Virus record (IMG/VR): IMGVR_UViG_3300037067_017859
Location: 1-64,000 of that record
Source of the DNA: a virus
Lineage: Duplodnaviria > Caudoviricetes
DNA: 64,000 bases
Reading direction: 5' to 3' (one strand)
The notes beneath the pieces were generated by a model that did not search any database, was not told the origin of the DNA, and worked only from the letters and a program-made list of their open reading frames with translations. Position 1 is the stretch's first letter, and each line of letters starts with the position of its first letter. Position numbers and translations under genes: made by a program. Of the stretch, positions 6,967 to 51,654 are shown in pieces.

Positions 6967-6969
6967 AAG

Positions 6970-7039
6970 GGTGGAGGCGAGATTCGAACTCGATCTCCCG
7001 GGTCACAACCGGGGGCTTTAACCGTTAAGCTACCTCCAC
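6970..7039 (-). tRNA. tRNA-His(GUG)
   Basis: CCCGG-TTGTGAC-CCGGG; C73; G-1 not encoded. Confidence 0.88.
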
Positions 7040-7233
7040 AACACTAATCCTTTGACTCCGCAGACGGCAGAATACTAAAATTCCGCCATTCCCCGCAATT
7101 CACACCAAACAAAATATCTTGGTTTTTCCAGACTTCCAGCCGGCCATTAATGTCACTAACCGAAATTTTGTTTGCACCCGCAATAACCTGAGCACTACCA
7201 TCTCGGAAATAAACTCGAACTCGTTTATTCCCT

Positions 7234-7572: not shown

Positions 7573-7636
7573 GGTGTAAACCCGGTTTACTACAGGCGGA
7601 GCCAATCGCAAGTCATTGACTCCGCCGCGGTGAGGG

Positions 7637-7984
7637 TTATTGACCCTTGAGTTGCTCTTCAAGCTTCGCAATTTCGTCCTTGAGAGCTTGACGCTTCTCT
7701 TCGGCAGGCAATAAAGCTTCCAGCCGGGATTTCTTTTCACGAAGCATCTTTTGCAGCCGATCAGCCTGGCTCAAAGAGATTTCCTTACGGATCTCGCGCA
7801 TCTTAGCATCAAGCCATTCGGGTTGCTCGACATTGAGGGTTTTGAACTCTTCCTGGATTACACGTCCAACTGCGGACAGAGTTACAAGATCCTCTAGAGC
7901 AAGACCCTCGGTTTCAAACTTCCGAATCTCGTCTATCAAATACATGGTCCGACCTCCTTTCTTAGTCTTCTTGGTTGCCATCAC
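7637..7984 (-). CDS. Coiled-coil protein coupled to the Ro60-like gene
   Basis: Overlaps or abuts the stop of 7962-9488; K/E-rich helical sequence. Confidence 0.6.
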   Translation of the reverse strand: MMATKKTKKGGRTMYLIDEIRKFETEGLALEDLVTLSAVGRVIQEEFKTLNVEQPEWLDAKMREIRKEISLSQADRLQKMLREKKSRLEALLPAEEKRQALKDEIAKLEEQLKGQ

Positions 7985-9488
7985 TGAACGCCTCCGACAA
8001 TTTCAAAAGCGGAGTCGACATGATCTCCTCCACCAAAGAGTATGGATTGGTCCGCATGCTTTGGACCAAGTTTGGAATACTGTAAAAATCAACATCATCG
8101 CCAAGTTCAAAAACTTGCAGATCAAAGCCACTTTTCTTCATGTTTTCGGCAAGGTCCGAATCTCCCCAACCGTGAATTGCAGATCCACAATGGTAGTAAT
8201 AGACAGGAATATCTTTTTCGGAAATCTTCAAGAGACGCCGGTATTCATCAGTAAATAATGGCGGAGTGTTCTCTTGTCCATCAGAAACGATCGCAATCCC
8301 ATCAATCTCTTCATGCCTTTGCATGGCAGCCCGTAATCCGCAACCGATGGAAGTCCCTCCATTGGCACTAACATTACGGGTCTTCTTCAAAATTTCGTCG
8401 TAGCCTAACCCGGTTACATCCATCGTTTCAGGAACAGTATCAAAGAAGGCAAGGGTGATATTCCCCTTAACCATCTTTGCCAAAGTTCCAGCAACGTGCC
8501 GGGCGGCCTCAATGCACTCAGACATGGATCCTGATTTGTCACCCAGGACCAGCCAATTGCCTTCAATGCTCATATTTTGAATCTGCTTCTCCTGGACAGC
8601 ATTGAGTTTGGCTTTCAGTTTTTCATCGCTGATTGCTTCTGCTGCGCGAGTGGTCTTCAGGACGTTTTTCTTAGACGTAGCCGCTCTCTTGAGAGCAGCC
8701 TCAAATGCTGCACGGAGCGCCGGGACAGTTTTGACGCCCAATTTCTCCAGCATTTTAGTGCTGGTGACGACTTCTGTCGGGCTCATACGCTCAATAAGCG
8801 CAAGAACTAAATCAGGATCCTTAATTTTCTCTCCAAGCGCTCCGTGTGCTATCAAGAACGGAATCTTCCGTTCAAGAATAGTTCCAGCCGCCTCCAGCGC
8901 ACTCATATTGCGCAGGTTGGCAACAGCCTCAAAAACGCTTCCTTTTGGCAGAGGAGACTTGACCGGCTTCCGGCCTTCCTCCTTCGCTTTCAGTCTTTCA
9001 TCCAGAGTATATCCGAAAAGAACGACGTTCACCCGATCAGAGCCAGGCTTAACATCAACCAACGAATAGAGCTCTTTGAGAACTGAACGGTGTTGGATAG
9101 CGGTGAAATCCCATTTCTTCCCTTCCTTCATGTGAAGATAATCCGCAATCACCCGTTTGAGTTGCCGAATATGGCCGACCGGACGAACATCCAGAGCAAA
9201 TCGATAGGCTTTCAGCAACTCTCTTGGATTCAAAAAAGTCAAATGAGCAAGACTGTTTTCGACGAGTTCTTGCGGAAATCCGGGAACGGTCAAACTGACA
9301 ATAGGCAAAGCCGCTTTCGCGTCCCTAATCTGCCCATGAGTGCGATCCCATGCAATAAGATGAGCCAAAAAGTCAGGTTCATTCTGCGCCGCAAGTTGTC
9401 CGATCGCAAGATATTCACGGAGTTTCCCATGAGGGGATTTGCTGAGTTCGGATATAATTTGGTTCTTGGTTATTTTGACTTTTTCCAT
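7962..9488 (-). CDS. Ro60/Rsr-like TROVE + vWA domain protein
   Basis: 508 aa; all-helical N-terminal ~300 aa; C-terminal vWA MIDAS DKSGSM...GGTS...VSDGQEN. Size and architecture match Ro60, and it sits next to Y-RNA-like stems. Confidence 0.72.
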   Translation of the reverse strand: MEKVKITKNQIISELSKSPHGKLREYLAIGQLAAQNEPDFLAHLIAWDRTHGQIRDAKAALPIVSLTVPGFPQELVENSLAHLTFLNPRELLKAYRFALDVRPVGHIRQLKRVIADYLHMKEGKKWDFTAIQHRSVLKELYSLVDVKPGSDRVNVVLFGYTLDERLKAKEEGRKPVKSPLPKGSVFEAVANLRNMSALEAAGTILERKIPFLIAHGALGEKIKDPDLVLALIERMSPTEVVTSTKMLEKLGVKTVPALRAAFEAALKRAATSKKNVLKTTRAAEAISDEKLKAKLNAVQEKQIQNMSIEGNWLVLGDKSGSMSECIEAARHVAGTLAKMVKGNITLAFFDTVPETMDVTGLGYDEILKKTRNVSANGGTSIGCGLRAAMQRHEEIDGIAIVSDGQENTPPLFTDEYRRLLKISEKDIPVYYYHCGSAIHGWGDSDLAENMKKSGFDLQVFELGDDVDFYSIPNLVQSMRTNPYSLVEEIMSTPLLKLSEAFSDGNQED

Positions 9489-9509
9489 GACGGTTCTCCC
9501 TTAGTTAAA

Positions 9510-9603
9510 TCACTGGAAGTCGATCGGCTTGAGTGCCATCCCGGTATTACCGAGACATAGGCATCATGTGTTAAAGACATGTAAGCCAATTCAGTACCAG
9601 TGA
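9510..9603 (-). ncRNA. Y-like cassette A (non-tRNA hairpin cargo)
   Basis: CACTGG-TACTGAAT-TGGCT-TACATG ... AAGCCGA-TCGACTT-CCAGTG. Confidence 0.8.
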
Positions 9604-9832
9604 ATCTTTTAGGATTTATATATTTTATTACCTCTCAACATCTTTAGCTTTCCGGACATATTTTACCAATGCTACAGTGAGAGATTCTTTTCCAATTACC
9701 CTGAAATACCACGCAAAGCAGCCCTTCCCAGTTATGATCAGATCCCCGATTTTCCAATACATGGCCTCTGGGCAGCGAAATTGCTGAACCTTTTTGGTCA
9801 AGGGAGTCATCTATATAAATCCCAATCTTTTC

Positions 9833-9908
9833 GTCCCATGTGCTATAGGCGCTGCGTCGAATCGGACCTGTTATGCCTAATTTGGTCCACTCAGACAGCA
9901 CATGGGAC
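9833..9908 (-). ncRNA. Y-RNA-like structured RNA with possible pseudoknot
   Basis: 12-bp terminal stem GTCCCATGTGCT/AGCACATGGGAC; GUC(U)GA/UCGAC bulged helix; GGACC/GGTCC; loop TAGGC can pair with GCCTA. Confidence 0.6.
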
Positions 9909-9911
9909 TTT

Positions 9912-9986
9912 GATGGTCCCCGCTACGGCTCTTATAGTCCCAATCCTCGAACCTTGGGCGGGTGTTGCCGGACTATCCGACCATCT
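9912..9986 (-). ncRNA. Structured RNA, nested stems with possible pseudoknot
   Basis: GATGGTC/GACCATC, ATAGTCC/GGACTAT, CCCGC/GCGGG. Confidence 0.5.
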
Positions 9987-9994
9987 ACTTTTTC

Positions 9995-10140
9995 TGGTTG
10001 CAAAGTCGACAATGCTGTTTTGATACAGACTGTTTATGAGACAGTTGCCCAACCGTTGGGCGGATCCGGCATAATAAAAAGAAAAGAGCCGGATCCCGGA
10101 GTCGAACCGGGTTCATGTAAGCATTTTCAGTATGCAACCA
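9995..10140 (-). tRNA. Cassette B: circularly permuted tRNA (anticodon CAU), break in variable loop (about 45/46)
   Basis: TACAT|GAA-CCCGGTTCGACTCCGGG-ATCCGGC..linker..GCCGGAT-D arm-ACTGTCTCATAAACAGT-CT. Confidence 0.85.
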
Positions 10141-10151
10141 TATAATTATTC

Positions 10152-10289
10152 TGGCGGTAAGTCGTTCGTGGTTTTTTTATTAGCCACTCCCCCATACTGG
10201 AATTAAAGTGGGGGAGTCAGGATTTGAACCTGAAATCTACTGATTAGTATTCAGTTGCTTTACCATGTATCCACATTCAGTGACCGCCA
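10152..10289 (-). tRNA. Cassette C: permuted tRNA (anticodon ACU), break in D loop before G18
   Basis: TACAT|GGTAAAGC-A-ACTGAATACTAATCAGT-...TCAGGTTCAAATCCTGA-CTCCCCC..linker..GGGGGAGTGGCTAAT; joining gives D loop AATGGTAA. Confidence 0.85.
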
Positions 10290-10297
10290 TATTTTAC

Positions 10298-10455
10298 TGG
10301 CCTATAAGTCGATCAGCTTATTTTTCTGTGCGTTTTCCATTTTCGCCATCCCCCTATAATTGAAAGATGAGGCAGGGGGAGAAGGAATCGAACCTTCAAT
10401 TTCGGTTTCCCGAAAACAGGACCCTAAGTCATGTAAGCTATTCAGTAACAGGCCA
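10298..10455 (-). tRNA. Cassette D: permuted tRNA-Leu(UAG), break in anticodon stem (29/30)
   Basis: 5' piece ends CGCACAG, 3' piece starts GACTTAGGGTCCTG; joining gives CAGGA-CTTAGGG-TCCTG; long variable arm. Confidence 0.87.
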
Positions 10456-10471
10456 TAGTCTTTTCAAAGAT

Positions 10472-10610
10472 CTGGAAGAGTCTGCAACGCCTTGGAGCCT
10501 GTAATATAATTCCGCAACTAATTCAGGATCCACGTCAGTCCGATTCGCTTGCTCCCATAGCCAAGAGGCAGTGTGTTTTTAATTGGACTCAGACTCTACA
10601 ATAATCCGGA
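10472..10610 (-). ncRNA. Putative structured RNA between cassettes
   Basis: Inverted repeats AGAGTCTG/CAGACTCT and AGTCCAATT/AATCGGACT; no start codon for its open frame. Confidence 0.35.
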
Positions 10611-10692
10611 GGGGTTCCTGGGACGCTATCCTCTAGAACCCCTATTCAAAATGCCCTCAATTGGGGCGTTTAGTACTTTATGACTGCAAGTC

Positions 10693-10723
10693 GTTTCAAT
10701 CCACGCCTCACGCTGGAGGCGAC
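10693..10723 (-). CRISPR. Solitary type I-C-like CRISPR repeat (no array)
   Basis: GTCGCCTCCAGCGTGAGGCGTGGATTGAAAC: GTCGC start, CGCCTC/GAGGCG hairpin, TGGATTGAAAC end. Confidence 0.75.
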
Positions 10724-10725
10724 GA

Positions 10726-10845
10726 TGGCTGTAAGTCGGCTGAGGAGCATTTGTGTTCGATACCCATCGACCCCCCCATACTATTTTTTGTGGAGGGGGG
10801 CGCCTGCGAGGCGCTACGCATGTAACCTCATCACAGTAACAGCCA
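10726..10845 (-). ncRNA. Cassette F: permuted tmRNA-like tRNA domain (Ala identity)
   Basis: GGGGGGG/CCCCTCC-A acceptor with G3:U70 and A73; stemless D region TCGATGGGTATCGA; aberrant T loop; no anticodon arm. Confidence 0.6.
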
Positions 10846-10865
10846 AATTCTTATTTCTGTGAGGC

Positions 10866-11411
10866 TCATTTGATTACCCGCTTTGCGAGGTAATCAACAA
10901 ACTTATTCGGATCCATCCCGCGCTCTGCGCACCAGACAAAAGGATCCTGCGAACCCTTATCTTTATTGCATGGCTTGCAGGACGTCAGATAATTCGAAGT
11001 GTTATTCTTCTTGTCGTCCATCTCGAGAGGGATAAAGTGATCGATCGTCATCAATCTCTCGCCCATCTTCGCGCCGCAATACATGCATTTAAACCCATCG
11101 GCCGCCCAAACCTTCTGCTGGATCGAGCCGGATATTTCGTATCTCACTTTCCGTTGGAAGATCTTAGGGTTTCCAACGAGTATCTCTGGATCATCGGAGC
11201 GGTGGATAAAGTCTGACCATTCCTCGACAGTCAATTCGTATTGATCCAGTGGACTGACTTGAGAAGTACCAGGAAGGAGTAGCAGTGCGTGAGCTCCTCC
11301 ACCACCTACAAGAAGTCCCTGAATCCTAATCAGCGACCCGATATCGCCATACATAACCGGGCGATTCCGCATTTCCATCAAATAGAACCGTTCCCCGCTT
11401 CCTTTGGACAT
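10866..11411 (-). CDS. HNH endonuclease embedded in the cassette array
   Basis: CMYCG...TIDHFIP...NNTSNYLTSCKPCNKDKG. Confidence 0.85.
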   Translation of the reverse strand: MSKGSGERFYLMEMRNRPVMYGDIGSLIRIQGLLVGGGGAHALLLLPGTSQVSPLDQYELTVEEWSDFIHRSDDPEILVGNPKIFQRKVRYEISGSIQQKVWAADGFKCMYCGAKMGERLMTIDHFIPLEMDDKKNNTSNYLTSCKPCNKDKGSQDPFVWCAERGMDPNKFVDYLAKRVIK

Positions 11412-11428
11412 CGTTGCCTCTTAATAAC

Positions 11429-11557
11429 TGGCGTTAATTCGATATGCTTTTTTTACGCGCTCTAACCAGACTGAGCTAACGGCTCAAAAGAGCCGTGTTG
11501 GACTTGAACCAACGACCTCGGCATTGGAATTGCATGTAAGCCTACCAGTGAACGCCA
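11429..11557 (-). tRNA. Cassette G: permuted tRNA-Gly(UCC), break in anticodon stem (28/29)
   Basis: 5' piece ends GAGCGCG, 3' piece starts GCAATTCCAATGCCG; joining gives CGGCA-ATTCCAA-TGCCG; U73; acceptor closed by TTTT. Confidence 0.87.
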
Positions 11558-11572
11558 TTTCTGGATTTTACC

Positions 11573-11697
11573 GTTCCCTGAAAGTCGATCAGCGGTTTTC
11601 CCTTGCGGGAATGATCGGATTTGAACCGATAACACATTGATCTCAAGTCAATTGCTCTACCATTGAGCTACATGTAAGCCGAACAGTATCAGGGAAC
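11573..11697 (-). tRNA. Cassette H: permuted tRNA (anticodon UGA, short variable loop), break in acceptor stem (6/7)
   Basis: TACAT|GTAGCTCAATGGTAGAGC-A-ATTGACTTGAGATCAAT-...CATTCCC-GCAA-GGGAA. Confidence 0.82.
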
Positions 11698-15699: not shown

Positions 15700-16188
15700 T
15701 TACTGGACGGCCACAGGATGTGGTGCAGTTGCCGAATCTTCAAAATCAAACTTAATTTGCATCGCCTGGCGAAGCAGTGGAAGAGGATTGTGCCAGCAAC
15801 CATGACGCTCGATAATCCCAATAAATTCCTCGACATCATGATCTTTGAGATAGAATCCCTTTTCATCGACCGCCAAATGGCAAAGTTCGTGATCGACAAG
15901 AGCTACCTGCTGATCAATGGTGAGAACGTCCCAATATACCTCGTCGACCTCGATTATGAAGTCGAAACCTGTGAGAGCGTGGTAAACCGGGTTTACTAAT
16001 TTTGCCTTTGCCATTGCTGGATGTTTTCCCATTCGCGCCGGCGGAGGAGGGCCATCGCTGTCCTCTGGAGCCAGCTTCATCATGTACGCAATCTTTGCGT
16101 GTGCTATTTCCTGATGATGCATTTTGATCAACGGTTCCGCAACTTCTGCGACTCTTACTGAGGTTTCGTATTCTGCTGCCATTGTCAT
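15700..16188 (-). CDS. Putative phage metallopeptidase
   Basis: ALVDHELCH (HExxH), HDVEEF..IIERHG. Confidence 0.75.
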   Translation of the reverse strand: MTMAAEYETSVRVAEVAEPLIKMHHQEIAHAKIAYMMKLAPEDSDGPPPPARMGKHPAMAKAKLVNPVYHALTGFDFIIEVDEVYWDVLTIDQQVALVDHELCHLAVDEKGFYLKDHDVEEFIGIIERHGCWHNPLPLLRQAMQIKFDFEDSATAPHPVAVQ

Positions 16189-37653: not shown

Positions 37654-40600
37654 AAAGTTATGCTTTCCCAAGACTCCACACCCAAACCGAAAGCCGTTAG
37701 ACAACAAGGAGATATTTCAATGATTACATTGCCAGACTTTGCCAATGAAACTGAATCTAATGAATTCTTTGCCCCTATCATTCTTGAAGCTCTTCGCAAG
37801 GATGCACAGGACAATGAAACGCCAGTTCCTCTAGATGAATATGATTCTGCCATGGAGCAATTAGAAGATTACAGCGGCTCCGATATCGTAATTGTCTATT
37901 TCAATCGGCGTGTTGTTGTTGTCCGCAGTATTCTGCCTTTTGAGAATGAAGGGCTCCTTGTTATCGATCTTGATTCGAAATCTGTTGTCCTGTCCTCCTG
38001 TACTTCTTACGAGGATGGGCAGGCTTCCGAATTGAATCTCTCTAAAGCTTAGGAGCGTTTTATGAAAAATTCCCTCTATGCTGATTTAAAAGCTAATGGC
38101 ATTGAGACTGATCATCATGAAAGCGATTTATACTTTCCTCGAAATCCGCAGACAATGGCAATCTTGTCCAGATATCCACTCCAGAAAAACATTGCCAGCA
38201 TTTTCATTCACACTGTAACCAATACTCAATGGTATGAAGTTCCTTTTGCTTATTCGCCCTTTTGGGCATCGAAAGGCTAACCCAATGAGATACGACATCT
38301 ATAAACGATATTTGCCCCTCGCACCAAATGATACCTATCGTTTTGAACCTGTCTGTTTTCGCACAAATAAGCGTGACGCTCTCTCTTGTGCTCGTGAGCT
38401 TTCCTCTAATCATCCTGAATTCAAATTTTCGGTGCATATCGGAGCAAAAATAATTGCATTCGCAAAAGCTGGCCGGGTTTCCCACTTCGCACAATATTGA
38501 GGACAAAATGAAAGTTGAAAGAGTCTTTACCGTTCCATCAACCGTTAAGCACTATTACCAATGTGAATGTGAAGCTCTGAATTGTCATGGCCGGGCAGGT
38601 TGTAAAAACGAAGCACATTCGCGCTATCGCATCGACGATTTTGTTAAGTTCTGGCTGTGTCCGAAATGTGTCAATCATTATCGAAAGGCTTAATTATGGC
38701 AAGCTATTTACAGGAATCTTTTAATCAGGTCTGTAAGCAAGCGATCCAGCCGAAAGGCTATTATGTTTCCCTCATGGAAAATATTCCCTATTACGGTGGG
38801 CCTGAAGAAGGAGGTTGGTGGGGTCATGATACGCGCATAGTCGCTTATCAGCGTTTCCCTTCTCTAGAACAAGCTGAAGCTGCAAAATCACAAGTGGAAA
38901 CTTTAGCCAATGAATTGACTATCGAGGATAGAAAGGCTTATGGCGACCATTGCTTGAGACAAACGGAATGGCTCGAAGCTCGTGGTCTTGATGATTCTTT
39001 TCTGCCTGAACCTGATGGCGAATCTGAATTTTATGTGTGCGTTTCTGACAGTCTGCCAGAAGAGTCTTTTGGCGATCGTCATTACGAATAAGGAGTGATT
39101 CTATGATGGGACCGAGAGAATTATCACAGAAATTGCAACCGGCTGTTCACGCTTGTTTGATTGCACAAGCTTGTGCCTTAGTGCATCGAGAGAGAGTTGA
39201 CGCAATTCAGCGCCGGATTTTGCAAACTGGCAATTGGCTTGCTGAAAAATCTCAAGAAAAGATTACCGATCCTAACCACACATATCTTATGCCTCAATCC
39301 GATTACCCGGCCTACTTTACCACTCTTCGAAAAGCATTAGAGGCTGACGGCTATGTTATCCAAACACACCATATTAATGACAATGAAAATTATTGGGATT
39401 ATTACTGCCCTGCCTGTCTGGCTGAAAGCATACAATCGGACGCCGAACACGTCTTAATCAATCTTTTCGCGGAATATCTCAATTATAAGGATTTTCTTCA
39501 TAAACTTCTCTCCGCCGGGATGGATGATTATCGCAAGCTCATTGATCTTCTTGTGCGGTTTGTCGTCAATTCGCCTGATTACGTTTCTCCTGTAATTCCT
39601 AAGAACGAGGCAAACCAATGCCATGGATAATTGACAAAGACCTTACAGCCGATCCGAATAGGCCAGAAGGTACGAATGCCAATGCTAAGGGGCTCCTGGG
39701 ACCAGGGACATATTCAGGCGATGGTTCAGAGCTCAAACATCAGTTCCGAATGTCCGATGATGATGGAATGATTTATTACATCGGACGCAATGATACCGCA
39801 GACGATAATAACGCTTTTGGGCCTTTAGACGATTTTGGAGCGCCTAACGCAGGATGCACCACGATCGAATATTTTGATGAGGATACCAGACAATGGCGAA
39901 TTCTTTAATGTCCCAATACAAATACTCTCAAGGCAGAACAATGCACGAAGCAATCAAAGCACAAGATTCTTATGCTGTAGACGCAGACGGTTTTGCTTCT
40001 CCGTTCTGGTGTCCAGGAACTTGCGGTATTGATGAATCTATTCTGGCTTTTAAATCTAATTTCCCAAATATTCACGGAGATTTTAAGCTCCTTCGAGTTT
40101 TAAAGGGCTCACAAATTGGTTGCATGATTTACGAAGAGTCAACAACTATCACATTTTAATGGAGGCTTTTATGCGCGTCTTGGTTGCCACAACAAAACAG
40201 CAAGGGAAAAGGTCTAATGATTTCAGCTTTACGAATGATGGCGAATTAGTACGTTATGGCTTTGATTGCGATGGCGAAGACGTTGACGGTGTTTGCGGCT
40301 GCAAGCGATCCTTAATCGGTTTCGATTCCCATAAGGGAACCACTACCTTTTGCATTGCCGAAATGGATATTAACCTCGAACAAGTAACCAAACTCATCGA
40401 AAAATCTCTAAAGGCTTCTGGCTTCATATCCCCAAGCGATCCAGAAGAAGAAAACAAGGAATTCATTGCTGAAATTGTGCTGGAAACTTTGAGCCTTTGG
40501 AAATCGTTCGATCAATTCCCTATTGGCCTCGTGCTGGAACGTAGAGGAGTATATTTCTCTCCGCGGATTGAGAAATCCGGATTATGTCCTATTTGTGGCG

Positions 40601-40765
40601 AAAAGATTCACCTTTCCGGACGGACGAAAGACAATAGATATATTGGCTCCTGTCAGGATGCTTTTACACTAGAACAATGGATTGCCTGATTCATTCTGGA
40701 TTTCGCGTGTAAACCCGGTTTACACGCGATACCTTGGATTAACCAGGGAGAAAGAGATAACTACA

Positions 40766-41224
40766 ATGGAACCGATCACCATTGGAACTGCAATCAAGGA
40801 AGTTCAAATCAAATACCTTACTCGCCAGAAAATAGGCGAGACTCGAAAGATATACAACAGTCAAGACGTTTTTGACATATTCCATCCTCTAATCAATCCC
40901 GAACGAGTTGAGGTTTTTATCTGTGTCATGGTCAATTCGAAAAACCGTATTTTGTCCTATGAGGTTGTGAGCCGAGGCTCTCTTAATATGTCCGTTACTC
41001 ATCCTCGTGACGTATTTTCAACTCCCGTACGACTACAGGCTTCGGCTGTACTTTTCCTGCACAATCATCCTTCGGGAGATCCAGCGCCAAGTATAGAAGA
41101 TAAAGACTGCACAGAAAAGCTTATGGCAAGCGCCAAAACTTTAGCAATCAAAGTATTGGATCATATAATCATCGGCGAAACTTCATATTACAGCTTTGCC
41201 GATTCTGGCGCATTGCCTGTCTAA
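40766..41224 (+). CDS. RadC-like JAB domain protein
   Basis: GSLNMSVTHPRDVF, HNHPSGDPAPSIED, VLDHIIIG. Confidence 0.9.
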   Translation: MEPITIGTAIKEVQIKYLTRQKIGETRKIYNSQDVFDIFHPLINPERVEVFICVMVNSKNRILSYEVVSRGSLNMSVTHPRDVFSTPVRLQASAVLFLHNHPSGDPAPSIEDKDCTEKLMASAKTLAIKVLDHIIIGETSYYSFADSGALPV

Positions 41225-44033
41225 TTCTGGATTTCGCCTGCTAATGCTCATTGGCAGGCGATACCTTGAATTAATCAAGGGGAAAGAGAGCAAGCCAATG
41301 CTACAACATTTCAAACCGTGCAATCGATCCAAAGAACGCATGGCTTATTATGCGGCTCCTGAAGGCAAAACGATCAAGGTCGAACTCTATTACACAAAAG
41401 GAGGAATCAGCTTCGCTACTAATAAACAAGTGCGAAGGGGAATCTTTATTTCCATTACGCCGGTGACATTAGAAAAGACTCAATCCGGTTTTACCTCGGA
41501 GTCTTTTATGCTTTTCTCAGGTACGCGAAGCCTATTATGTGAGCTCAAACGCTTTTCCGAAAAGGCATTGCATGATGTAGCCGAAAAGATTGACGACCTT
41601 ATTCCAAAGGTTGCTGCAAATATCAATGCAGAAACCGCGACACAAACCGATTTTGACACAAATGTTTTGTATCTCCGCGATTGCTACCTGAACCCTGAAC
41701 TTAGAAATTTAGCCTTTCCGGCGCCGGGTAGTGAAAAAACAAAGGCTTCCAATGGATAATAAAAAACGGCGTCCACAGTTATATTTGAGTTTTACGCTCC
41801 GTCCAGAAGAAACGATTTCAGTACTTCGCCATGGCGACCAAGCGATTATCATTGTCTCCGTAATCCAAAACGATTTTGAAGGAGGAGGAACTTTATCTGA
41901 ACCCAAATGGAGAAATTGTAGCCGTATGAAAGGAACTGGACAATTCGATAACCTCGAACTTAGAGGATATCTATCAGCCGATATGAACGGCGCTTATGGC
42001 TATCACGTGGCCTATTGGGATATCCATGAAGCTGAATCTAAACGGGCTGCATTAATGGCCAAAACCCTCAAAATGATTGAAAAGAAATTCTCTTATTACA
42101 ATACAAAGGAGGGAGACAGGCTTGATATCGGCGTGGAAGTAAACCGCTTTTGCCGGGCTATAGGCGCTGAAGGTCTTATTGAGTGGACAGAAACCATTTC
42201 CAATTATGATGATTGTCCTTATCGCAAATGGAATCTAGCGCAAATACCAAATGTCGTGAATTCAAGAATTGAAGGTTGGCATATCGAGCACCCGAATAAA
42301 TCAATTGCATAGCTTGGATTTCAGGACATAAGCCATAATCTTATGTCCTGATACCTTAGCTTATGCGAGGGGAAAGAGAGTAAACCAATGCCAAGAGTAT
42401 TTGACCTTAGCGAAACGGAAATTGTCCAATATCATCATATGCGCGATCGGACGCCGGATTGCAGAAACTTTTCCGGCGCTGGCAGGCGGCGCTATCCATG
42501 CCCTACGTGCGGCAAACCAAATCGATTGACTGAAACGGAATCTCTTGAGGGATTTCAATGCTCTAATTGTTCGAGGAAATCATAATTATGGATACCAATT
42601 GGGATAGGGAACCACAAATGGACGCTGAAAGAAAACCGTCAATGGAAGACAAAGGGTTTACAACAAAGTCTCCTTATCTAATGACAAAGGAAGAGCGCCA
42701 TAGTCTTTTCCAATGCCTGGAAGCGGAATTGCAATTGCAGAAGCTTCCAACATCATATGGGTTGCCTCGTTTGGCTCATTCCGACGAATTCATGATAATG
42801 CATACCACCGAAGAAGGTGTTATAGGATTTAAGCATATTGGCACCCGCAACTATGTTTTCCTGCTTCCTTCGGAAAGCCAGAACCGTAAGTATGAGCTTT
42901 ACGTTCCTGTGTCCAGAGAGCTTTTTATGCGTGGACAATTCGACGAATATTAGGATTTTATGAAAACCAGAAGATCTGTGAGGAATCAAAACATTCTTTG
43001 GAAAGAACTGGGAGGAAAACCCGATCCAAAGCCCGAACCAGTAAAAACCAAATGTTGTTGGAATTGCATATTTTATTCTAACTGCGGCCGGACAAATGGA
43101 ACTTGCAGAAAGCATGGGAAAAAAGTGGGAGGAAGAGAACAACTGAATTGTTATACACCAAACCTAAAAGGAATAACGCTATGAAAAAAGTTAAAGAACT
43201 GACCGATGAGGAATGCAGGGAGGTTTTAGACAGAATTGTTAGAGTAATGTATGAAAGCATTGATCCTGATACGGACAAACCTATTCTAGATCCTTTCAAT
43301 GAATTTAATGCCTCGATGCTGGACGATATCGCGGCGGCTCTTGAATCCTATGAGTTAGTTCCGGACGAAATTGTTGATCTGGAAGAACCAGAAACAGATT
43401 CTTTACCGGAGTGATTATCGAGCTTGGCATTCTGCTCCTGGGAATAGAATGCCAGGTCCGCTAATTAAAGCGGGGAAAAAGAGCAAACCATTATGGACAA
43501 TATCATTACTAAAATCGACGAAGCAAATAATCGGCTCATTATCAACTTGGCATTACAGGCTCCAGTAGCATCGGCCAGTGGGAAAACCCTCGTGGTCGCG
43601 TCCACCCGCGGCAACGTAAAGACCGGAGTCATGATCAATGGCAAAGAAGTCACTGTTGGCTGCAATGCCTACATAAAGCCCTAAAAATACTGAAAGGCGA
43701 TTTCACGGGCCACATTCTTTGTGGCCTGTGATACCGCTTTTTAGCGGGGAAAGAGAGAAACCATGAGCAAACCGAAAAAGGAAATATCTAAACCTCCGTT
43801 CAATGATCCGGAGTTAAGGCTAAAATTCAGACAGCTTGTTAATGCGGCCGTCAAACTCCAATGCATCCTATGGGACAGATTCGGAGAGATTGAAGGATTG
43901 TTGGGCAGAGATATTCAAGACTTCGACGCTAATATCCATGATCTTGCAGCGGCAAGCGACGAAGGGTTGATAGATGATAGCCAAGCTGAAACTTTTTTCA
44001 ACGAACTTGAATTCACTCCGGAGGACTAATCCG

Positions 44034-44948
44034 ATGATGCTAACCTTAACCGAATGGACGCCTGAAAGAATACCGATCAGTCACCAATTGCCTCCTATGC
44101 CGCACGAGGGATGTCTTCAAATACCCAAAGAATGTGAATCAGGTTGGGAGCAATTGCCACGTGCTGTAGAACCTGAAGCGGAAGAACCTGAGATTGAAGA
44201 AAAACCAAAAATCAAAGAGTCAGAATGTTTGATTAAAAAAAAGGACATTTTGGCTTATTTCAAAGGGAACGATAAAACCGGGTATACCTGCCATCCGCCA
44301 TGGATGAAATTATTTGAAATCTACACTCCACCAAGTTGCCCAAAGCCGCCGATCGATAAGAAGATAGCAGCTACCATCGAAAGGTTGACCAAGAATATTC
44401 AGAAAAGTTATGTCCAGCACCTTCCTGCAAACAAAAATCATAGGCAATGCGATGCTTACATCGGCTCCCGAACAAAAGATTATAAATATGAATGTGTCGC
44501 AACTGACGAACACCGAGCTATCCTCGTGAGGAGGAATGATAAGCAGAAAAAAGTCAATGGGGTTAGCTCATGGAGGCTATGGAGTGTTAATGAAGTTCCG
44601 AGTCCAGGCGAACCGTCACTAACCCTGACGGATCCTGATATTTTTGTTGCCATTAAACGCCTTTCCACACTTCTGGACACTAAGTATTGGTTCATTGTTT
44701 TAAACTGGAATGATTCAGGGAAATTAATCATTTCCGCCGAGAATTCATTCAAGGAAGAAGGAGTTGAAGAATTTTCTTGTAAAGCCACCTATTCCGGCAG
44801 AATTGCTTTAGACCCTCGTTATGTTCTTCCTGCGCTTGGAACATGGCCATTAGTTATGTACCAGAAAGAAAAAAAGAGTCCTGCAATCTTTATGCCGGAC
44901 ACAAAACAACGTGAATTCATGTACGTGCTTATGCCAATGCAATTATGA
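44034..44948 (+). CDS. Protein with a C-terminal sliding-clamp (DnaN)-like region
   Basis: VATDEHR (compare DnaN ATDGHRL), LIISAEN..EEGVEE, IALDPRYV, terminal FMYVLMPMQL. Confidence 0.6.
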   Translation: MMLTLTEWTPERIPISHQLPPMPHEGCLQIPKECESGWEQLPRAVEPEAEEPEIEEKPKIKESECLIKKKDILAYFKGNDKTGYTCHPPWMKLFEIYTPPSCPKPPIDKKIAATIERLTKNIQKSYVQHLPANKNHRQCDAYIGSRTKDYKYECVATDEHRAILVRRNDKQKKVNGVSSWRLWSVNEVPSPGEPSLTLTDPDIFVAIKRLSTLLDTKYWFIVLNWNDSGKLIISAENSFKEEGVEEFSCKATYSGRIALDPRYVLPALGTWPLVMYQKEKKSPAIFMPDTKQREFMYVLMPMQL

Positions 44949-45884
44949 ACAATCTAAGTCTGGTCGTGTAAACCGGGTTTACGCGACCAGACTCCGCTTT
45001 TAAGCGGGGAACTGAGGAAGAAAGGAAATTAAATCAATGGACGAATTAACAGAAGATCAAAAGATCGGAACATGTTCCTGGTGTCATGAGAAAAAAGTCC
45101 TCATCTATAAGGACACCAAACGCTGCGATTCCTGTGATAACCGCTTTACCTATTGTGAAATATGCGAAGAAGAGCAATTTGAAGATGATCATTGTCGTCA
45201 CTTATTTTGGTCTGAAGGCTACGGATGGAGTGGAAGCGGGACAACCAATACAGATTACGACAGCATAAAAGCCTCGCTATTGAAACTCCTTCAATTTATG
45301 CCGTCTGGATTCGCGGCAGAACTCCGAACGGCCATTCTTAGCAATGAATTCCGTACTTTTACGATCGGCAGTCTATTGAGGATCGATTGCGTAGAATTAG
45401 AGGGGTTTCATCCTTCCTTGAAATACAGCAAGAAATTGATTGACCTTGAAAGTAGCGACCATGCCGAAGAAACAGCCGATGGTTATAATTGGCTTGCGAG
45501 TTTATGTGAGAGTGATACGGCAGAAGCCAATGCCCTAACAATCAAATGGATCGAGGAATTCTTAAAATGACCAAACTCGAACTTGGGAGGAAGAACATGC
45601 AGAAGGAAAAGCTATTCGACGATCGAAAGCAAACCAGGCGAAGAAGACCGAATTTCGGGAAACGATACATTCCAAAACATAAAACCCCGTTGCCCATCGA
45701 AGATTACATTGATGCATTTGGGAGGAAAGACAAGGCCGGGCGTGAAAACCAAAAATAAAGGAGGGTTCTATGGGCAGAAATTGGCAACCGAAGCTCAAAT
45801 GCAAATGCAGCAATTGCGGGTGGACCGGAAAGCGTACTTTAAGAATGATGTCTAATTATTGCCCCAACTGTGGGAAATGGGGAA

Positions 45885-46601
45885 CTATTCGTCAGGATCC
45901 GGAATGACATCTTCATCGTCTTCATCGGAGATTTCATCAACCGATGCAGTTTCTTCCTCTACCGGGGTTGCCTCTGCATCAATAACCATTTCACTATTTT
46001 GGGGGATTTGATCTTGAGTATTAGCAGCATTCATTCTATCCATTACAGTACGAAGAAGATCTTCAGAACTCCGGATTCCAGACTGCTGGCGGGATTCGCC
46101 TCCACCGATGTTCAAACTCTGCTGATTGACGCTGACATTGATGGCTCCCGGCTTCTCCGTCATTCCAACCGCTTCGCGGTATTCTTTCAATGGGCTCGTG
46201 GGAGTCAGGCCGGCCGCCAAGAATTGCTTGGCTTCAATATCCAGGGATTCACCCAAGAGGCGCCGGTACTTTTGACCCTCGGTACGCTGAATCAGCAAAC
46301 GGTTTCTGTCATTCTCATGCGCAATAAGCGTTCTGGTTTGGTGAAGGCTCTTGACATGCTGGAGGTCACACTCAATGTCTGCAAGATTGCACTCTTCGCC
46401 ATTCCTATTAAGAAAAGCGACGATCTCCTCTTCAGTAAATCCGGAAATATAATGGCTGTAGACCGTGACAGCCCGATCGTGAGAAGGATAACCATTTTTA
46501 GCGCCACGCTTACTCTGCGGCGGGACATCGCTTTTGGTGATGGCCCATTCATAACCTTGTTTCATAACGTGATGATACAACATCAAAGATAAAATTAACA
46601 A
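45885..46601 (-). CDS. Hypothetical protein, possibly terminase small subunit
   Basis: Helical N-terminal region, INVSVNQQ..IDAE tail, acidic C-terminus; weak support. Confidence 0.35.
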   Translation of the reverse strand: MLILSLMLYHHVMKQGYEWAITKSDVPPQSKRGAKNGYPSHDRAVTVYSHYISGFTEEEIVAFLNRNGEECNLADIECDLQHVKSLHQTRTLIAHENDRNRLLIQRTEGQKYRRLLGESLDIEAKQFLAAGLTPTSPLKEYREAVGMTEKPGAINVSVNQQSLNIGGGESRQQSGIRSSEDLLRTVMDRMNAANTQDQIPQNSEMVIDAEATPVEEETASVDEISDEDDEDVIPDPDE

Positions 46602-46620
46602 AGGATCTTTAAGGAGGCCA

Positions 46621-47439
46621 ATGATCTATCCTCACGACCATAAAGAGGAATTTATAGAGTTGGAATCTGGCCTTATCGTGCCACGGGATGCCATTCCTAA
46701 ACGGCGTCCAACCTGTGTCGATTTGTTTTGCGGATGCGGCGGCATGAGTTTGGGCGTAATTCAGGCCGGAATGGAAGTAGTTGCAGCCGTCGAATGGGAC
46801 TATGCGGCCGCGCAAACTTATCTCGTAAACCTTGGAGAGTATCCCTGCGAGATCATCGGAATCGATCCTGGAGATCGAGAAGGTTTTTCAGATTATTTGG
46901 AAAAACAATTCAATAAGCAAAAGCCCCAAAATGGCGTAGTGCAATTAGACGTATGCGGAAGCGGGTGGAGAGCGCACAACCCGGAAATTCCTGGGGTTAA
47001 GCATTTCTTTATAGGCAACATACGCAATCTGACCGGCAAGCGCATCCTCGAAGCTGTGGGCCTTGAGCAAGGAGAACTCGATTTAGTTTGCGGTGGTCCT
47101 CCTTGTCAGGGCTTCTCACTCTCCAATTCTAAGCGTAGCGCCGATGATCCTCGGAATAGCCTTGTTTTTGAATTTGTGCGTCTGATTCTTGAAATGATGC
47201 CCAAAACCATGGTGATGGAGAACGTCCCTCAAATGGCGAAAATGGTTACGCCATGGGGAACCAATATAATAGACGAAATTGCTCTTCGGCTGGAAGCTGG
47301 AGGATGGGGAGTTGCTGAAGGCGTCAGGCAAACACTTTTAGGTGGGAAGGATCGAGGAGGGGCAATCAAACGGCCTAAAGAGACAAAAACTATAAAAACA
47401 AATAAGCAAAAGAAACTAAGTTTTAAGAAAGGAAGTTAA
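46621..47439 (+). CDS. C5 cytosine DNA methyltransferase, N-terminal half only
   Basis: DLFCGCGG (I), GGPPCQGFS (IV), MENV (VI); motifs VIII-X not visible. Confidence 0.8.
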   Translation: MIYPHDHKEEFIELESGLIVPRDAIPKRRPTCVDLFCGCGGMSLGVIQAGMEVVAAVEWDYAAAQTYLVNLGEYPCEIIGIDPGDREGFSDYLEKQFNKQKPQNGVVQLDVCGSGWRAHNPEIPGVKHFFIGNIRNLTGKRILEAVGLEQGELDLVCGGPPCQGFSLSNSKRSADDPRNSLVFEFVRLILEMMPKTMVMENVPQMAKMVTPWGTNIIDEIALRLEAGGWGVAEGVRQTLLGGKDRGGAIKRPKETKTIKTNKQKKLSFKKGS

Positions 47440-47442
47440 CCG

Positions 47443-48030
47443 ATGAGCCACCTATTTCTCACTGAAGAGAAAATTCACATCCTCCTGGAGTCGGCAAAGG
47501 CTAATCTTCGTGACTATGCTTTACTGCACATGGCGGCAAGCACAGCGTTGCGAGGATCCGACCTTCTCAGAATCACCCTCGAGGACATGGTTGATAGGAA
47601 CGGCGAAATCATCAGGCTGCTCCGATTAAAGATGAAGAAGACCGCCCAATGGATCGAACGGCCGCTCCGGGACGATTGCCGGCAAGCTGTTTTTACCTGG
47701 ATCAATAGCCGGAGAGACAAAAACCCTTATCTCTTCATTTGCCTTGGGAATGAAGGGAAAAACAGAAAAAAACCATTAAGCAGAATGGGTTATGATCGAA
47801 TTATCAAAAAATACCTGGCTTTGCAATATCATGAATCCGTTTTGCAGGGATGCTCGACACATACGCTGCGGCGATCCGTGGCGAAGCTCGTCTATAAGAA
47901 GACCGGCGAAATTGCCGCGGCGCAATCGCTTCTTGGGCATCATTCCCCCATCAATACCATAAAATATATCGATCCAAACGAAATCAAGGAGAAGGCTAAT
48001 AAAGTGGTTTTGGAGGATCTTCAATGGTAG
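47443..48030 (+). CDS. Tyrosine recombinase (catalytic domain only)
   Basis: LRGSDL, HTLRRS, LLGH, KY catalytic motifs; 195 aa. Confidence 0.85.
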   Translation: MSHLFLTEEKIHILLESAKANLRDYALLHMAASTALRGSDLLRITLEDMVDRNGEIIRLLRLKMKKTAQWIERPLRDDCRQAVFTWINSRRDKNPYLFICLGNEGKNRKKPLSRMGYDRIIKKYLALQYHESVLQGCSTHTLRRSVAKLVYKKTGEIAAAQSLLGHHSPINTIKYIDPNEIKEKANKVVLEDLQW

Positions 48031-48567
48031 AAAACGATGATCCTACCAAATTCGAGGTTGCCTGCGTTCATGGCACATCTATTATCAGGCGTAAGGTCGT
48101 AAATGAAAAGGGATTTGAAATTCTACAAAGGATGGCGGAAAGAGCAACAAATGGACAATATCACTGGATTAGAGTAAATTATCCCGATTCGACAACAGAG
48201 CGGGTGCTTGGGGAAGTACCTGGGGCTCATAACCCTGGTAAAGGCGGTCCGACTCCGCCACCCGCTACCAAATTAAAATTAAAAGAACCAAGTCCTTTTA
48301 AAGGAGACCCTGGCGATTCAACAACCAAATGTCTTGGTTGTGATAAGGATTTGGGATACCCAACAAGCAGAAAAAAACCATCTGCATGGTGCCGGTCCTG
48401 CTATCCAAAATATAGAGCTTATCTCAAAGATGAAGTTAATCCTTATAACTATGATTTTCCGATTTATAATTATGCGTCAGGCCATAATTCAATAAATTTA
48501 AGAATAAAACAAAAAATGCAATATGGGTTCAGGATTCTTTATGCTTCATATAACGAAGGATAGAGTC

Positions 48568-48597
48568 TTGACACTCGAATCGTAATCCGGTTAGAAT
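48568..48597 (+). promoter_or_regulatory. Sigma70-type promoter followed by a GC hairpin
   Basis: TTGACA-N18-TAGAAT; GGGGG...CCCCC stem about 48618-48647. Confidence 0.45.
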
Positions 48598-49242
48598 CAT
48601 TTTGCTTGGTTTCTCTCGGGGGGTTCGCTTGATCGGGGCAGCCCCCCACTCCTTTATTTGCCAGTCAATTCAAGAAATATTCCAATAAAACCTCGAGACA
48701 TAGCCCAGGATTGTGCAGCCGAGAATCCATTGTTTTTGAGTATGCGACGGATTTTATGCCGAGGGTAAGTACGTTCGTAATAACGGGCAATCTGAGACTT
48801 CCTTCGTCCAAGATGACGAACCTTTGCCGCGCCTTTTTTGGGTTTCTTAGAGAGATCTCCCATGATTTAAGCTCCTTTGAAAATCTAAAGTGCTGTCGTC
48901 ATGGAAGACCTCCTTATGCCTGAGAGTGATGTGCGAATGATCACCACGTTTACTTCAACAACCTTCATCATAATATTTTTATTACTGGTGTCAATATGAT
49001 TTTGCTATACTCTGTCCGTTAAAGGAACCTCAGAAAGACCCCATGGCCAAGCGTTGCGATCACGATGATAATTATGTTTGTCAGAAATGCGGCGAGTGCT
49101 ACCAATGCCAGCATGAGCAAGAAGAATTTGATGGTTATATATGGTGGAAATGCCGTTTTCAGGATCGAGTTCATAGAACCAATACCGCAGGTAAAATCGT
49201 TGAAATTGTAGGGAATAATTTCGGACAGGATTAAAACAAGTT

Positions 49243-51126
49243 ATGCATCCAAGTGTAATGGACTTCTTGAGAAAAAATATAATTGGCGAAGAATTCGAGG
49301 GAAAACGAGTTCTGGAGATCGGAAGCATATACTGGGACGTCAGCCCTCGAGACATCATCATTCCATTAAAGCCTGCCCTATATATTGGGATTGACGAACG
49401 GCCAGGTAAAGGCGTCGACGAAGTAAGATCCGCTAATGAACTGTCCAACAGATTCGAGCCCGGCTGGTTTGACGCCGTTGTTTGCACCGAAGTTCTTGAA
49501 CATGCAAAAAACTGGCGTCTGCTAATCGAACAGATCAAATATGTCCTCAAACCTGGAGGGGTTCTTTACTTAACATGCCGCGGTGAGGGTTATCCTTACC
49601 ATGAAGAACCGAACGACTTCTGGAGATTTTCCGTTAAGAACATGGAGGGAATCCTTTCCGATATGATCTGCTTCATTGAACCAGATCCGCAATTCCCTGG
49701 AGTATTCGCTAAAGCTTTTTTAAGCCAGGAAGCTTTGAGGCCGGCGAAGCTTTATTCCATTTTCCCAAAACCTATATATCCCCCGACGCATCATCTTTCA
49801 CATAAGGGTCCGCCAGTAGACCAATCTATAAAATTCACTGTCATCACAGCCACAATACTTAGACCTTCACTAAAAACCGCCTGTCGGCGCCTGGAGGCCC
49901 AAACGTATAAAAACTGGGAGCACATTGTCATGATTGACACTCCCGGCGCAGATATCCCTGAATGGCTGCCACATCCACAAAGGAAAATCAGGGTTTGCCC
50001 AATACCTCACAATAACGTGGGAAATAGCTGCCGATCTAACGCTTGGCCCCTGATAACCGGAGATTACGTCATTTATTTGGACGATGACAATCACTACCAC
50101 AGCCGCAGTTTAGCTCTCCTTGCAGAGGCTATTATGCGAATGTCTCCGCATCCGGAATGGGGAGTGTTCCCAATGGCAAGGATGGGCAAGATATTTTTTA
50201 ATGTCCCACCAGGTAAGAACAAGACTGATACTGGTCAATTCTTTCATAAGCCGATCGTCCGCGGGATTGAGATCCGATATCTTCCCATAAACGACTATGC
50301 CGCAGACGGAGAAATGGTCGAGAAGCTTTCCAGAATATGCAAACCGGCCATCATTAATCCGGAAATCCCTCTCATAAACATGCCAGTGAGAAGTTTCGGT
50401 CTGAGGTCTGACTATTTTGCCAAGACCGAGGCAAGTAATTTCTCAGTAATTATTCCTAATCGATTCGAGGATATAATCCGACCGCTTATTCATTCGATCA
50501 AATTGCACGAACAGGATCCATGCCTGAACGTCCTTATTGTCGGAGATTGTCATAGTAGGGATTACGGATTTTCAAACCTAAGACTGGATTATGAAAAATT
50601 CATCTTTTCCCGAAACGTCAATGCCGGAATCAGGTATGTGGATCCAGATGACGTAATTCTTGTGAATGATGATATTCGTCTAATAATGCCTACCTTCCAA
50701 ATCCTTCACCGGATTATGCAGGAAAATCCAAAAATAGGGATACTCACGCCTTTAGTCGATGGAGGAGTGGGAAACCCTAAACAAGTCGCTGAAAATGTGC
50801 TGACTGGAAACACCATGCCTCCTGAATTAACCTATTCAGCTTGCACTAAAGACGATTATCTTACCTTCCCTATTGTCTGCCTGAAGAGAAAACTCCTCAA
50901 TGAGATGCTTTTCAATGAGGATTTTGTGTCTTACGGGAAAGATGACGCTGACTTTTGCATTCGCGCCGGCCGGCTTGGATGGAAAGCAGCGGTTTACAAC
51001 TGGATTGTCTGCCAACATGGCTCGGGCGGAAGTGAGAACCTCCGCGGAAAGAATTGGAATACGTCTTTCATGCGGCGCCCGGAACTTTTGGTAGGAGAAG
51101 ATGTTTTTTCCAAAATTCACAAGTAA
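49243..51126 (+). CDS. SAM-methyltransferase + two GT2 glycosyltransferase domains (fusion)
   Basis: VLEIGS, CTEVLEH, LKPGG; YLDDDN; LVNDD and YGKDDADFC. Confidence 0.8.
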   Translation: MHPSVMDFLRKNIIGEEFEGKRVLEIGSIYWDVSPRDIIIPLKPALYIGIDERPGKGVDEVRSANELSNRFEPGWFDAVVCTEVLEHAKNWRLLIEQIKYVLKPGGVLYLTCRGEGYPYHEEPNDFWRFSVKNMEGILSDMICFIEPDPQFPGVFAKAFLSQEALRPAKLYSIFPKPIYPPTHHLSHKGPPVDQSIKFTVITATILRPSLKTACRRLEAQTYKNWEHIVMIDTPGADIPEWLPHPQRKIRVCPIPHNNVGNSCRSNAWPLITGDYVIYLDDDNHYHSRSLALLAEAIMRMSPHPEWGVFPMARMGKIFFNVPPGKNKTDTGQFFHKPIVRGIEIRYLPINDYAADGEMVEKLSRICKPAIINPEIPLINMPVRSFGLRSDYFAKTEASNFSVIIPNRFEDIIRPLIHSIKLHEQDPCLNVLIVGDCHSRDYGFSNLRLDYEKFIFSRNVNAGIRYVDPDDVILVNDDIRLIMPTFQILHRIMQENPKIGILTPLVDGGVGNPKQVAENVLTGNTMPPELTYSACTKDDYLTFPIVCLKRKLLNEMLFNEDFVSYGKDDADFCIRAGRLGWKAAVYNWIVCQHGSGGSENLRGKNWNTSFMRRPELLVGEDVFSKIHK

Positions 51127-51654
51127 ACCCGGTTTACATCCAACTTTCACTTTTTTCACCCTCGTATAATGCCCCAGGATCAACAATCATCCTTCCACTG
51201 CCATACGAATACCTTGTCGGGTGGATTAATTAGGCTGTTCATGGAATGCCAAGCCAGGCGGGGTGTTTTAGTAATTAGTCAAACCCTGGTTTACGAGAAT
51301 AAAAGAGCTTGTTGTTTCTTTTTCTCTTTTTTCTGGAAAAAAGCAGCGGCGGCGGCACGGGCTTCTTCTTTGTGACGGTTAATTTCTGCTTCTAATCTTT
51401 TCATTTCTATTCGTTCCTGCGCTGCGTCATAAAGCCATTTACTGAATAGGCCGGGAATTCTCTCAATTGCCTTTTCCATGTCCCGGCGCCTCCCGGACTT
51501 AATCCCGGTTTTCCCATTGCAGAAACAACCAGGATCATATCCGAGAGATCCATCGCGGAAGAAAAAGAATCCCCGAATCCAATGGCACCTTCTACATTCC
51601 AAAAGTTTGAGTTTATGGCCATTGGAATAAGCGGACTTCAGCTTTTCATAATCT

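Follow-up and report, generated by a model that had tools for sequence, protein, structure and literature searches.

Repeated two-fold leaders between the accessory genes of a groundwater and landfill phage look like a new family of mRNA-processing and insulating signals

The stretch of viral DNA analysed here (the window: 64,000 nucleotides (nt), positions 1 to 64,000 of IMG/VR record IMGVR_UViG_3300037067_017859; Duplodnaviria, Caudoviricetes) comprises the first 64 kb of a contig of 109,283 base pairs (bp), rated complete by CheckV, and carries six copies of a leader element of about 75 nt, each filling the gap between the stop codon of one gene and the ATG of the next. The leaders can adopt two mutually exclusive folds, both of which are under selection. 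By analogy with phages T7 and SP82, in which signals for cutting and insulating mRNA are known, they look like a new family of such signals, and the explanation that we favour, to which we give a probability of about 45%, is that they would be cassettes for intercistronic RNA processing and insulation, cut in the manner of RNase III.

Each leader consists of a long hairpin (hairpin 1), a few conserved bases, a short hairpin (hairpin 2), a purine tract and the start codon (Table 1). A first-pass annotation of the sequence had described six such two-hairpin leaders, each beginning after the upstream stop codon, and all six are present in front of the ATGs that it named, with RNAfold giving both the long and the short hairpin in every case. 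The arm pairs that it listed (CGCCTGC/GCAGGCG and others) are correct, and the copies in front of 43493 and 45037, which it had called looser, are indeed so.

Table 1. Coordinates of the six leaders and of their parts (window positions).
Leader	Span	Strand	Hairpin 1	Hairpin 2	Purine tract	ATG	Remarks
1	40690..40765	+	40703-40729	40732-40748	40746-40756	40766	Before the RadC-like gene; palindrome GTAAACCCGGTTTAC at top of hairpin 1
2	41225..41297	+	41234-41261	41264-41280	41279-41290	41298	Tract reads GGGGAAAGAGAG
3	42313..42387	+	42321-42351	42354-42371	42370-42380	42388	
4	43415..43492	+	43422-43457	43458-43473	43473-43483	43493	Looser 5' box
5	43685..43762	+	43703-43731	43734-43747	43747-43757	43763	
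6	44949..45036	+	44957-44993	44992-45009	longer, degenerate	45037	Loosest copy; hairpin 1 of 17 bp, palindrome GTAAACCGGGTTTAC at top

The pattern GATTTC-N(18-40)-GATACC occurs five times in the window against 0.3 expected, and none of 100 shuffles reaches five; four of the occurrences are leaders and the fifth is a chance match in a coding region at 42551. The exact tract GGGRAARAGAG stands in leaders only and at no other gene of the phage. Furthermore, when two copies were made into a covariance model, it picked out all six leaders and nothing else in the 109,283-bp genome, save reverse-strand echoes of the palindromic stems. A generic scan of the genome for two hairpins, with 68 and 66 matches on the two strands, was too permissive to be informative.

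Pattern scans and model searches led to four further contigs and thus to a family that numbers 33 copies; the five phage contigs that carry it, the window phage included, are related, come from metagenomes of groundwater and landfill and have 6-8 copies each. The relatives are a 109,212-bp phage whose sample was of the same type (seven copies), a 106,946-bp phage with terminal repeats (six copies and one gap with hairpin 1 only), a 4.6-kb metagenome contig (six copies) and a GC-richer 110-kb contig (eight copies within the 11 kb examined). An SGA start persists across the family, and invariant in it are the hairpin 2 clamp, CC...GG, and the purine tract GGGGAAAGAGAG, with 1-9 nt between tract and start codon. 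The boxes GATTTC and GATAC, which the first-pass annotation had made part of the leader, match the above pattern in four of the window leaders and are not universal: they decay across the family and are absent from the GC-rich relatives, where the folds are kept.

The same annotation had allowed that a match to a known Rfam motif might overturn its proposal, and none was found: at the gathering score, Rfam release 15 gave no leader match in the whole window, and at E values of up to 10 it gave only three chance matches in 40600-45100, of 14-20 bits and to eukaryotic families. A blastn search of a phage database with the leader region gave no match, a single-protein search for related loci found none, and among pattern-matched stretches from one genome per species of the GTDB there was no real copy in bacterial genomes. 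Most pattern-scan matches in the viral, metagenome and GTDB genome collections are chance matches; one candidate locus (L027) and the 22-bit matches in four others (L040, L064, L090, L135) are unrelated. An alignment-based protein search identified two distant AT-rich contigs (L035, L036) that share a 304-amino-acid (aa) gene with the window and carry no such leaders. At the position of leader 3, the 106,946-bp relative has a gap (L030:2322-2389) in which a long hairpin 1 is followed by an ordinary AAGGA ribosome-binding site, with neither hairpin 2 nor the purine tract; this could be the joint either in a decayed state or in an alternative form.

The sequences of the hairpins differ between copies and the pairing is kept, as had been noticed within the window, and compensatory changes are seen in both hairpins across the family. 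Over 32 distinct rows, in an alignment that was fitted to the structure and includes one reverse-strand row, 94.6% of 552 cells of hairpins 1 and 2 are paired, compared with 57.6% in shuffles (0 of 500 as high) and 38-48% when the partners are slid, and 202 cells show changes on both sides against 66 expected. In a MAFFT alignment of the 19 AT-type copies, which was not fitted to the structure, hairpin 1 is paired in 95.2% of cells, with compensatory changes in 11 of its 12 pairs. Double compensatory changes also separate the leaders of the closest relative from their orthologues in the window, for example AGGACATAAG/CTTATGTCCT versus AAGGCATAAG/CTTATGCCTT.

Folding each copy on both strands allowed us to assess on which of them the structure is kept. 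Hairpin 1 is more stable on the sense strand in 28 copies and on the antisense strand in 3 (p = 2.6e-6), and G-U pairs number 105 on the sense strand compared with 46 on the antisense strand. This asymmetry argues for an RNA element, or at least for one of the top strand, and against a symmetric DNA cruciform or a bottom-strand site. We consider it highly probable that the leader acts at the RNA level.

Folded together with 25 nt of upstream flank, 24 of the 33 copies take the form, at minimum energy, of one long hairpin, in which the region of the stop codon pairs with the 5' arm and loop of hairpin 2. Because the stop-codon region takes up the 5' arm of hairpin 2, this hairpin and the long fold cannot coexist. 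In leader 3 with its flank, for instance, the minimum-energy fold is a long hairpin that contains the TAG stop codon, and the long fold of leader 5 consists of 12 bp, a 3x3 internal loop and another 10 bp. The pairs gained by the extension number 8.1 on average with the natural flanks and 3.3 with random flanks from the same locus, and in the unfitted MAFFT alignment the lower stem is paired in 85.6% of cells, compared with 61.1% in shuffles (0 of 500) and 38-45% with slid partners, with changes on both sides in 8 of 10 pairs. The duplex energy between the flank and the segment after the hairpin gave a moderate signal only (mean z of -1.3), the random-flank folding and the covariation count being clearer. 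Thus, both of the exclusive folds are under selection, and it is unusual for an intercistronic element to have two such folds, each with covariation support.

The long helix has a median of 24 bp, or about two helical turns. Its upper stem measures at least 12 bp and is free in sequence, with its 12 columns gap-free in all 19 AT-type copies; below it lies either a conserved 3x3 loop, in which A faces C, U and A may pair and U faces U, or the arrangement 1x1, 2 bp, 1x1, followed by a lower stem of 6-10 bp. Hairpin 2 has loops of 4-12 nt and a stem of free sequence with a CC/GG clamp. The purine tract and the start codon are unpaired in both folds. The distance from the stop codon to the conserved SGA box downstream of it is 3-17 nt (3-14 nt in all but one of the six copies in the window), and in most copies the stop codon falls within or just before the 5' arm of the lower stem.

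We propose that the leader is a cis-acting RNA of the sense strand, a portable joint that reaches from stop codon to next start codon in a long accessory operon. The operon would be transcribed as a polycistronic RNA in which the long imperfect hairpin forms first and is cut, at or near its internal loop, by an endoribonuclease specific for double strands, most likely the RNase III of the host. The upstream mRNA would then be left with a hairpin of 12-13 bp at its 3' end, which could protect it from 3' exonucleases; in the downstream mRNA, whose pairing partner is then gone, refolding would make hairpin 2 a stabilising hairpin at the 5' terminus that keeps the purine ribosome-binding site GGGGAAAGAGAG free of neighbouring sequence. 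Each gene, or small group of genes, would in this way carry its own signals for stability and translation, whatever its neighbour. Such an order of cutting and refolding would give a reason for selection on both folds. The leaders are also direct repeats, near-identical over 40-75 bp, and as such, whether as a second function or a by-product, would offer sites at which homologous recombination can add, delete and reorder cassettes.

The substrates on which Escherichia coli RNase III acts usually span two helical turns. Internal loops limit cutting by this enzyme to one strand and so leave a protective 3' hairpin, and the minimal R1.1 substrate of T7 yields a hairpin product of 28 nt (PMC1540722). 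With about two turns of double-stranded RNA, an internal loop below the upper stem and a hairpin 1 of about the size of that product, the geometry of the long fold fits the substrate rules of bacterial RNase III. Of the proposals in the first-pass annotation, that of an mRNA processing or translation element is the one we favour, in view of the compensatory changes, the sense-strand bias in G-U pairs and stability, and the ribosome-binding site in which every leader ends.

Several points weigh against cleavage by RNase III. The enzyme has no positive sequence consensus, so that the predicted match is one of geometry alone, and no RNase III encoded by the phage was found in its genome. Both the cut itself and the reading of the operon as a single early transcript are things that we infer. 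In nine of the 33 copies the minimum-energy structure is that of hairpin 1 with hairpin 2, one position of the lower stem is unpaired in 13 of 19 copies, and the two folds are on average about 2 kcal/mol apart, which would also suit a switch that is driven by the ribosome and involves no cleavage. Furthermore, the copies are related to one another, and the shuffle controls overstate significance for this reason; a fairer test is given by the slid controls and by the alignment that was not fitted.

Gene content and gene order differ at the leaders between related phages, as a comparison suggested in the first-pass annotation brought out. In the closest relative, leader 2 is followed by an additional gene with a leader of its own, the two genes that stand before leader 4 in the window (42960-43414) are missing, and the gene behind leader 6 is a different one. 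At leader 4 itself, hairpin 1 is unrelated between the two phages, and hairpin 2 and the ribosome-binding site are common to both; two leaders of the closest relative are near-identical duplicates. Across the five contigs, the same protein families appear in differing orders and combinations, always between leaders. The breakpoints of homology between the window and the closest relative lie at three positions, namely between hairpins 1 and 2, just after hairpin 2 and inside the purine tract, a spread that fits recombination within short homology better than it fits one crossover point that is always the same.

The window phage and its closest relative co-occur in one groundwater sample, where the assembled contigs branch apart inside leaders (window positions 41289, 43499 and 43779). 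Contigs of two DNA runs break or branch at leaders, with one low-confidence joint from 40726 to 41264 whose shorter side measures 23 nt; these breaks stem from the co-occurring relatives and are not independent evidence.

The main rival, which we hold to be rather unlikely, is a switch for translational coupling or insulation that works without cleavage. Here the terminating ribosome would melt the lower stem, the freed segment would snap into hairpin 2, and the upper hairpin would bring the released ribosome near the purine ribosome-binding site, so that translation of a cassette is tied to, or insulated from, that of the preceding one. The place of the stop codon near the SGA box, mostly in or just before the 5' arm of the lower stem, speaks for such a switch, as do the selection on two exclusive folds that are close in energy and the ribosome-binding site that invariably closes the element, a short and fixed distance before the start codon; the leader-less genes of the block, moreover, overlap or abut their neighbours in the manner of classical coupling. 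However, an open purine tract and start codon in both folds predict no obvious on/off effect, 65-75 nt from stop to start is long for reinitiation, and the switch gives no special meaning to an upper stem of at least 12 bp or to a length of two turns. We regard as less likely again an operator for an RNA-binding protein of phage or host that reads the internal loop, or hairpin 2 with the purine tract, and turns the cassettes on or off jointly, for which the repression by T4 RegA and the cleavage of early messages by RegB are precedents. Conserved unpaired stretches (the SGA...(A/U)UACC box and GGGGAAAGAGAG) and a CC/GG clamp beside stems of free sequence are typical of RNA recognised by proteins, and the purine tract is confined to leaders and missing at the other genes of the phage. 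Against this reading, no candidate RNA-binding protein was picked out, most genes of the block have no family assignment, the GC-rich relatives lack the 5' and 3' boxes and yet keep the folds, and the second fold would be left unexplained.

A composite transcription signal, either a terminator or attenuator hairpin joined to a promoter, as in the promoter-early stem-loops (PeSLs) of T4-like phages, or an N4-type hairpin promoter with transcripts starting GGGG, seems to us very unlikely. The leaders have a PeSL-like place, from stop codon to Shine-Dalgarno sequence and ATG before orphan genes, and the same link to cassette shuffling (PMC2839356), and a run of G directly follows the short hairpin. 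However, no -35/-10 pair of the sigma-70 type is common to the copies, a promoter scan of the block gave 24 sites where shuffles predict 27.5, with one weak site (9/12) in leader 1, hairpin 1 is followed by no U-tract, and none of the leaders contains a terminator-like site. The hairpin promoter that the first-pass annotation had offered as an option found no backing, given that the spacing of the conserved boxes varies by several bases and that neither a phage RNA polymerase nor a sigma factor was found; the T7-type polymerase family PF00940 had no match in the phage, a search in which the control genomes gave no match either and three proteins of about 750 aa remain without assignment, and the 4231-aa protein encoded outside the window is a polyvalent methylase-helicase. 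Covariation of hairpin 2 that includes sense-strand G-U pairs, moreover, has no role in a double-stranded promoter. The last of the earlier proposals, an attC-like recombination site in folded DNA that the nearby tyrosine recombinase would use as in an integron, held up in so far as genes are gained, lost and moved at the leaders, and the leaders do resemble attC in having an imperfect hairpin with conserved base and free top directly after each open reading frame (ORF), with cassette presence and order differing among the five relatives. The recombinase (47443-48030) is the catalytic-only protein predicted earlier, with 195 aa, of which residues 5-179 match PF00589; it lies 2.4 kb from the array and is kept nearby in two relatives at 93% and 74% identity, whereas the one neighbour compared, the 304-aa protein at 44034-44948, is less conserved (77% and 52%). 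The resemblance fails at the R boxes, with RYYYAAC in 0 of 33 copies, GTTRRRY in 2 and both in the right order in none, at the three breakpoint positions and at the strand, because the leaders fold better on the coding strand and attC sites fold on the bottom strand (PMC6393395). The nearest solved relatives of the recombinase are XerC-like and XerA proteins. We thus rate an attC-like site as extremely unlikely, and give equally long odds to an integron-like phage gene-cassette system in which the leaders do more than supply homology and are its working sites, and in which a bistable hairpin, as top-strand DNA or as its RNA, is recognised by the minimal recombinase; a role of this well-conserved enzyme at the leaders is possible. 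If there were such a system, accessory genes would be captured and reordered together with a ready-made expression signal. A K-turn, a hammerhead core, CsrA sites, a put-type antiterminator and a CRISPR-repeat mimic were dropped by eye, as their defining nucleotides or copy pattern do not fit.

DNA of the window is contained in groundwater and landfill metagenome runs, and no RNA run was among those found to contain it. The leaders lie in a plus-strand block of genes, about 37660-51126, that is flanked by minus-strand blocks and in which the genes without a leader abut or overlap their neighbours; judging from gene packing, strand and gene content, the block is probably one transcript, and an early one. 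Elsewhere the phage encodes a terminase, a portal protein, DnaB, SbcCD, a tRNA cluster and a 4231-aa polyvalent protein. The cassette genes (window 40159-45570, plus strand) include those for a DUF7715 protein, a RadC-like JAB protein, a small zinc-ribbon protein with weak similarity to the restriction-alleviation protein Lar, and the 304-aa protein (44034-44948), the C-terminal part of which weakly matches a phage polymerase processivity factor. Most genes of the block lack a family assignment, and the content of the cassettes fits what might be expected of an accessory or counter-defence region.

A 15-bp perfect palindrome, GTAAACC(C/G)GGTTTAC, makes up the upper end of hairpin 1 in two of the leaders (1 and 6) and is also found at both ends of the plus block (37526; 51123, where it overlaps a stop codon). 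The genome has seven exact copies and two with one mismatch, compared with none for a reversed control pattern: the copies in the window are at 7576-7590, 15982-15996, 40709-40723, 44968-44982 and 51123-51137, with near-matches at 19738 and 37526, and further copies stand at genome positions 81308 and 104742. Two related phages have eight and nine copies at matching places, and the palindrome is probably an operator bound by a protein or a boundary signal.

Within the plus block, a minus-strand ORF of 232 aa (45885-46583) is conserved in the closest relative and is fully overlapped by a less protein-like plus-strand frame of 240 aa. The gene directly before that of the recombinase (46621-47439, plus strand) encodes a C5 cytosine methyltransferase of 272 aa only, the best Pfam stretch of which covers profile positions 47-137 of 324. 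On the minus strand, seven clustered tRNA matches lie at 5443-11673, two of them covering the tRNA model only partly (positions 5-66 and 7-64), and a 425-aa protein encoded at 16604-17881 matches the phage PurZ-type adenylosuccinate synthetase family (phrog_1211, E = 3e-66), so that 2-aminoadenine may replace adenine in the DNA of this phage. The 4231-aa protein, encoded on the minus strand at genome positions 66754-79449 and thus outside the window, has GGDEF, methyltransferase, Strawberry-notch-type helicase and LPD38 domains and is not an RNA polymerase.

In phages, small accessory genes form large sets whose membership changes fast; many of these genes are likely to serve counter-defence, and how genes that are shuffled in this way stay expressible is a standing question in modular phage evolution. 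We believe that the leader family suggests a compact answer: an RNA joint of about 75 nt would give each cassette its own mRNA ends and ribosome-binding site, and the same joint would, at the DNA level, be the homology for cassette exchange. If it works as proposed, it could also be used as a natural insulator part for synthetic operons. The two exclusive folds also make a clear target for distinguishing between refolding coupled to processing and a ribosome-driven switch.

By analogy, the leaders seem closest in function to the RNase III sites of T7 and SP82 and, in evolutionary behaviour, PeSLs of T4-like phages are what they most resemble. In T7, the RNase III signals R0.3, R0.5, R1, R1.1 and R1.3 separate the early genes. 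Like these, the leaders are repeated intercistronic hairpins, in what is probably a polycistronic phage message, with about two helical turns and an internal loop about one turn below the apical loop, and by the published rules (PMC1540722) the upstream mRNA is predicted to end in a protective hairpin. In contrast to the T7 signals, they are fused to an invariant purine ribosome-binding site and to a second, exclusive hairpin that is itself selected; no Rfam model matched them, and the likeness is one of geometry and not of direct sequence comparison. The early mRNA of phage SP82 is cut by Bacillus RNase III, and the sites in SP82 and SPO1 (work cited in PMC4838370) are likewise conserved structured elements, set at intervals along an early operon in which a large lytic phage carries small accessory genes. 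No relation between these sites and the leaders is known, however: they are likened by description and not by sequence.

PeSLs span from the stop codon to the Shine-Dalgarno sequence and ATG of orphan genes, have G-T pairs in their stem-loop and bound insertions, deletions and replacements between close relatives, for which recombination between copies has been proposed as the cause (PMC2839356). The leaders bound insertions, deletions and replacements between close relatives in the same way and have a stable stem-loop, but they possess neither the defining strong sigma-70 promoter nor a terminator U-tract, and the examined parts of the phage have no T4-like features. With integron attC sites they share the imperfect hairpin with a conserved base and a variable top directly 3' of a cassette gene, and the presence of a tyrosine recombinase gene nearby; they differ in lacking R''/R' boxes, in folding on the sense strand and in their variable breakpoints, and the recombinase has no sign of the IntI type, although the IntI-specific insertion was not looked for. 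With the hairpin promoters of the N4 virion RNA polymerase, the leaders share an early region as their place and a short hairpin immediately upstream of what may be a G start, and they differ from them in that no virion RNA polymerase was found in the phage, by a search that had no positive control, and in that hairpin 2 has loops of 4-12 nt and a stem of free sequence.

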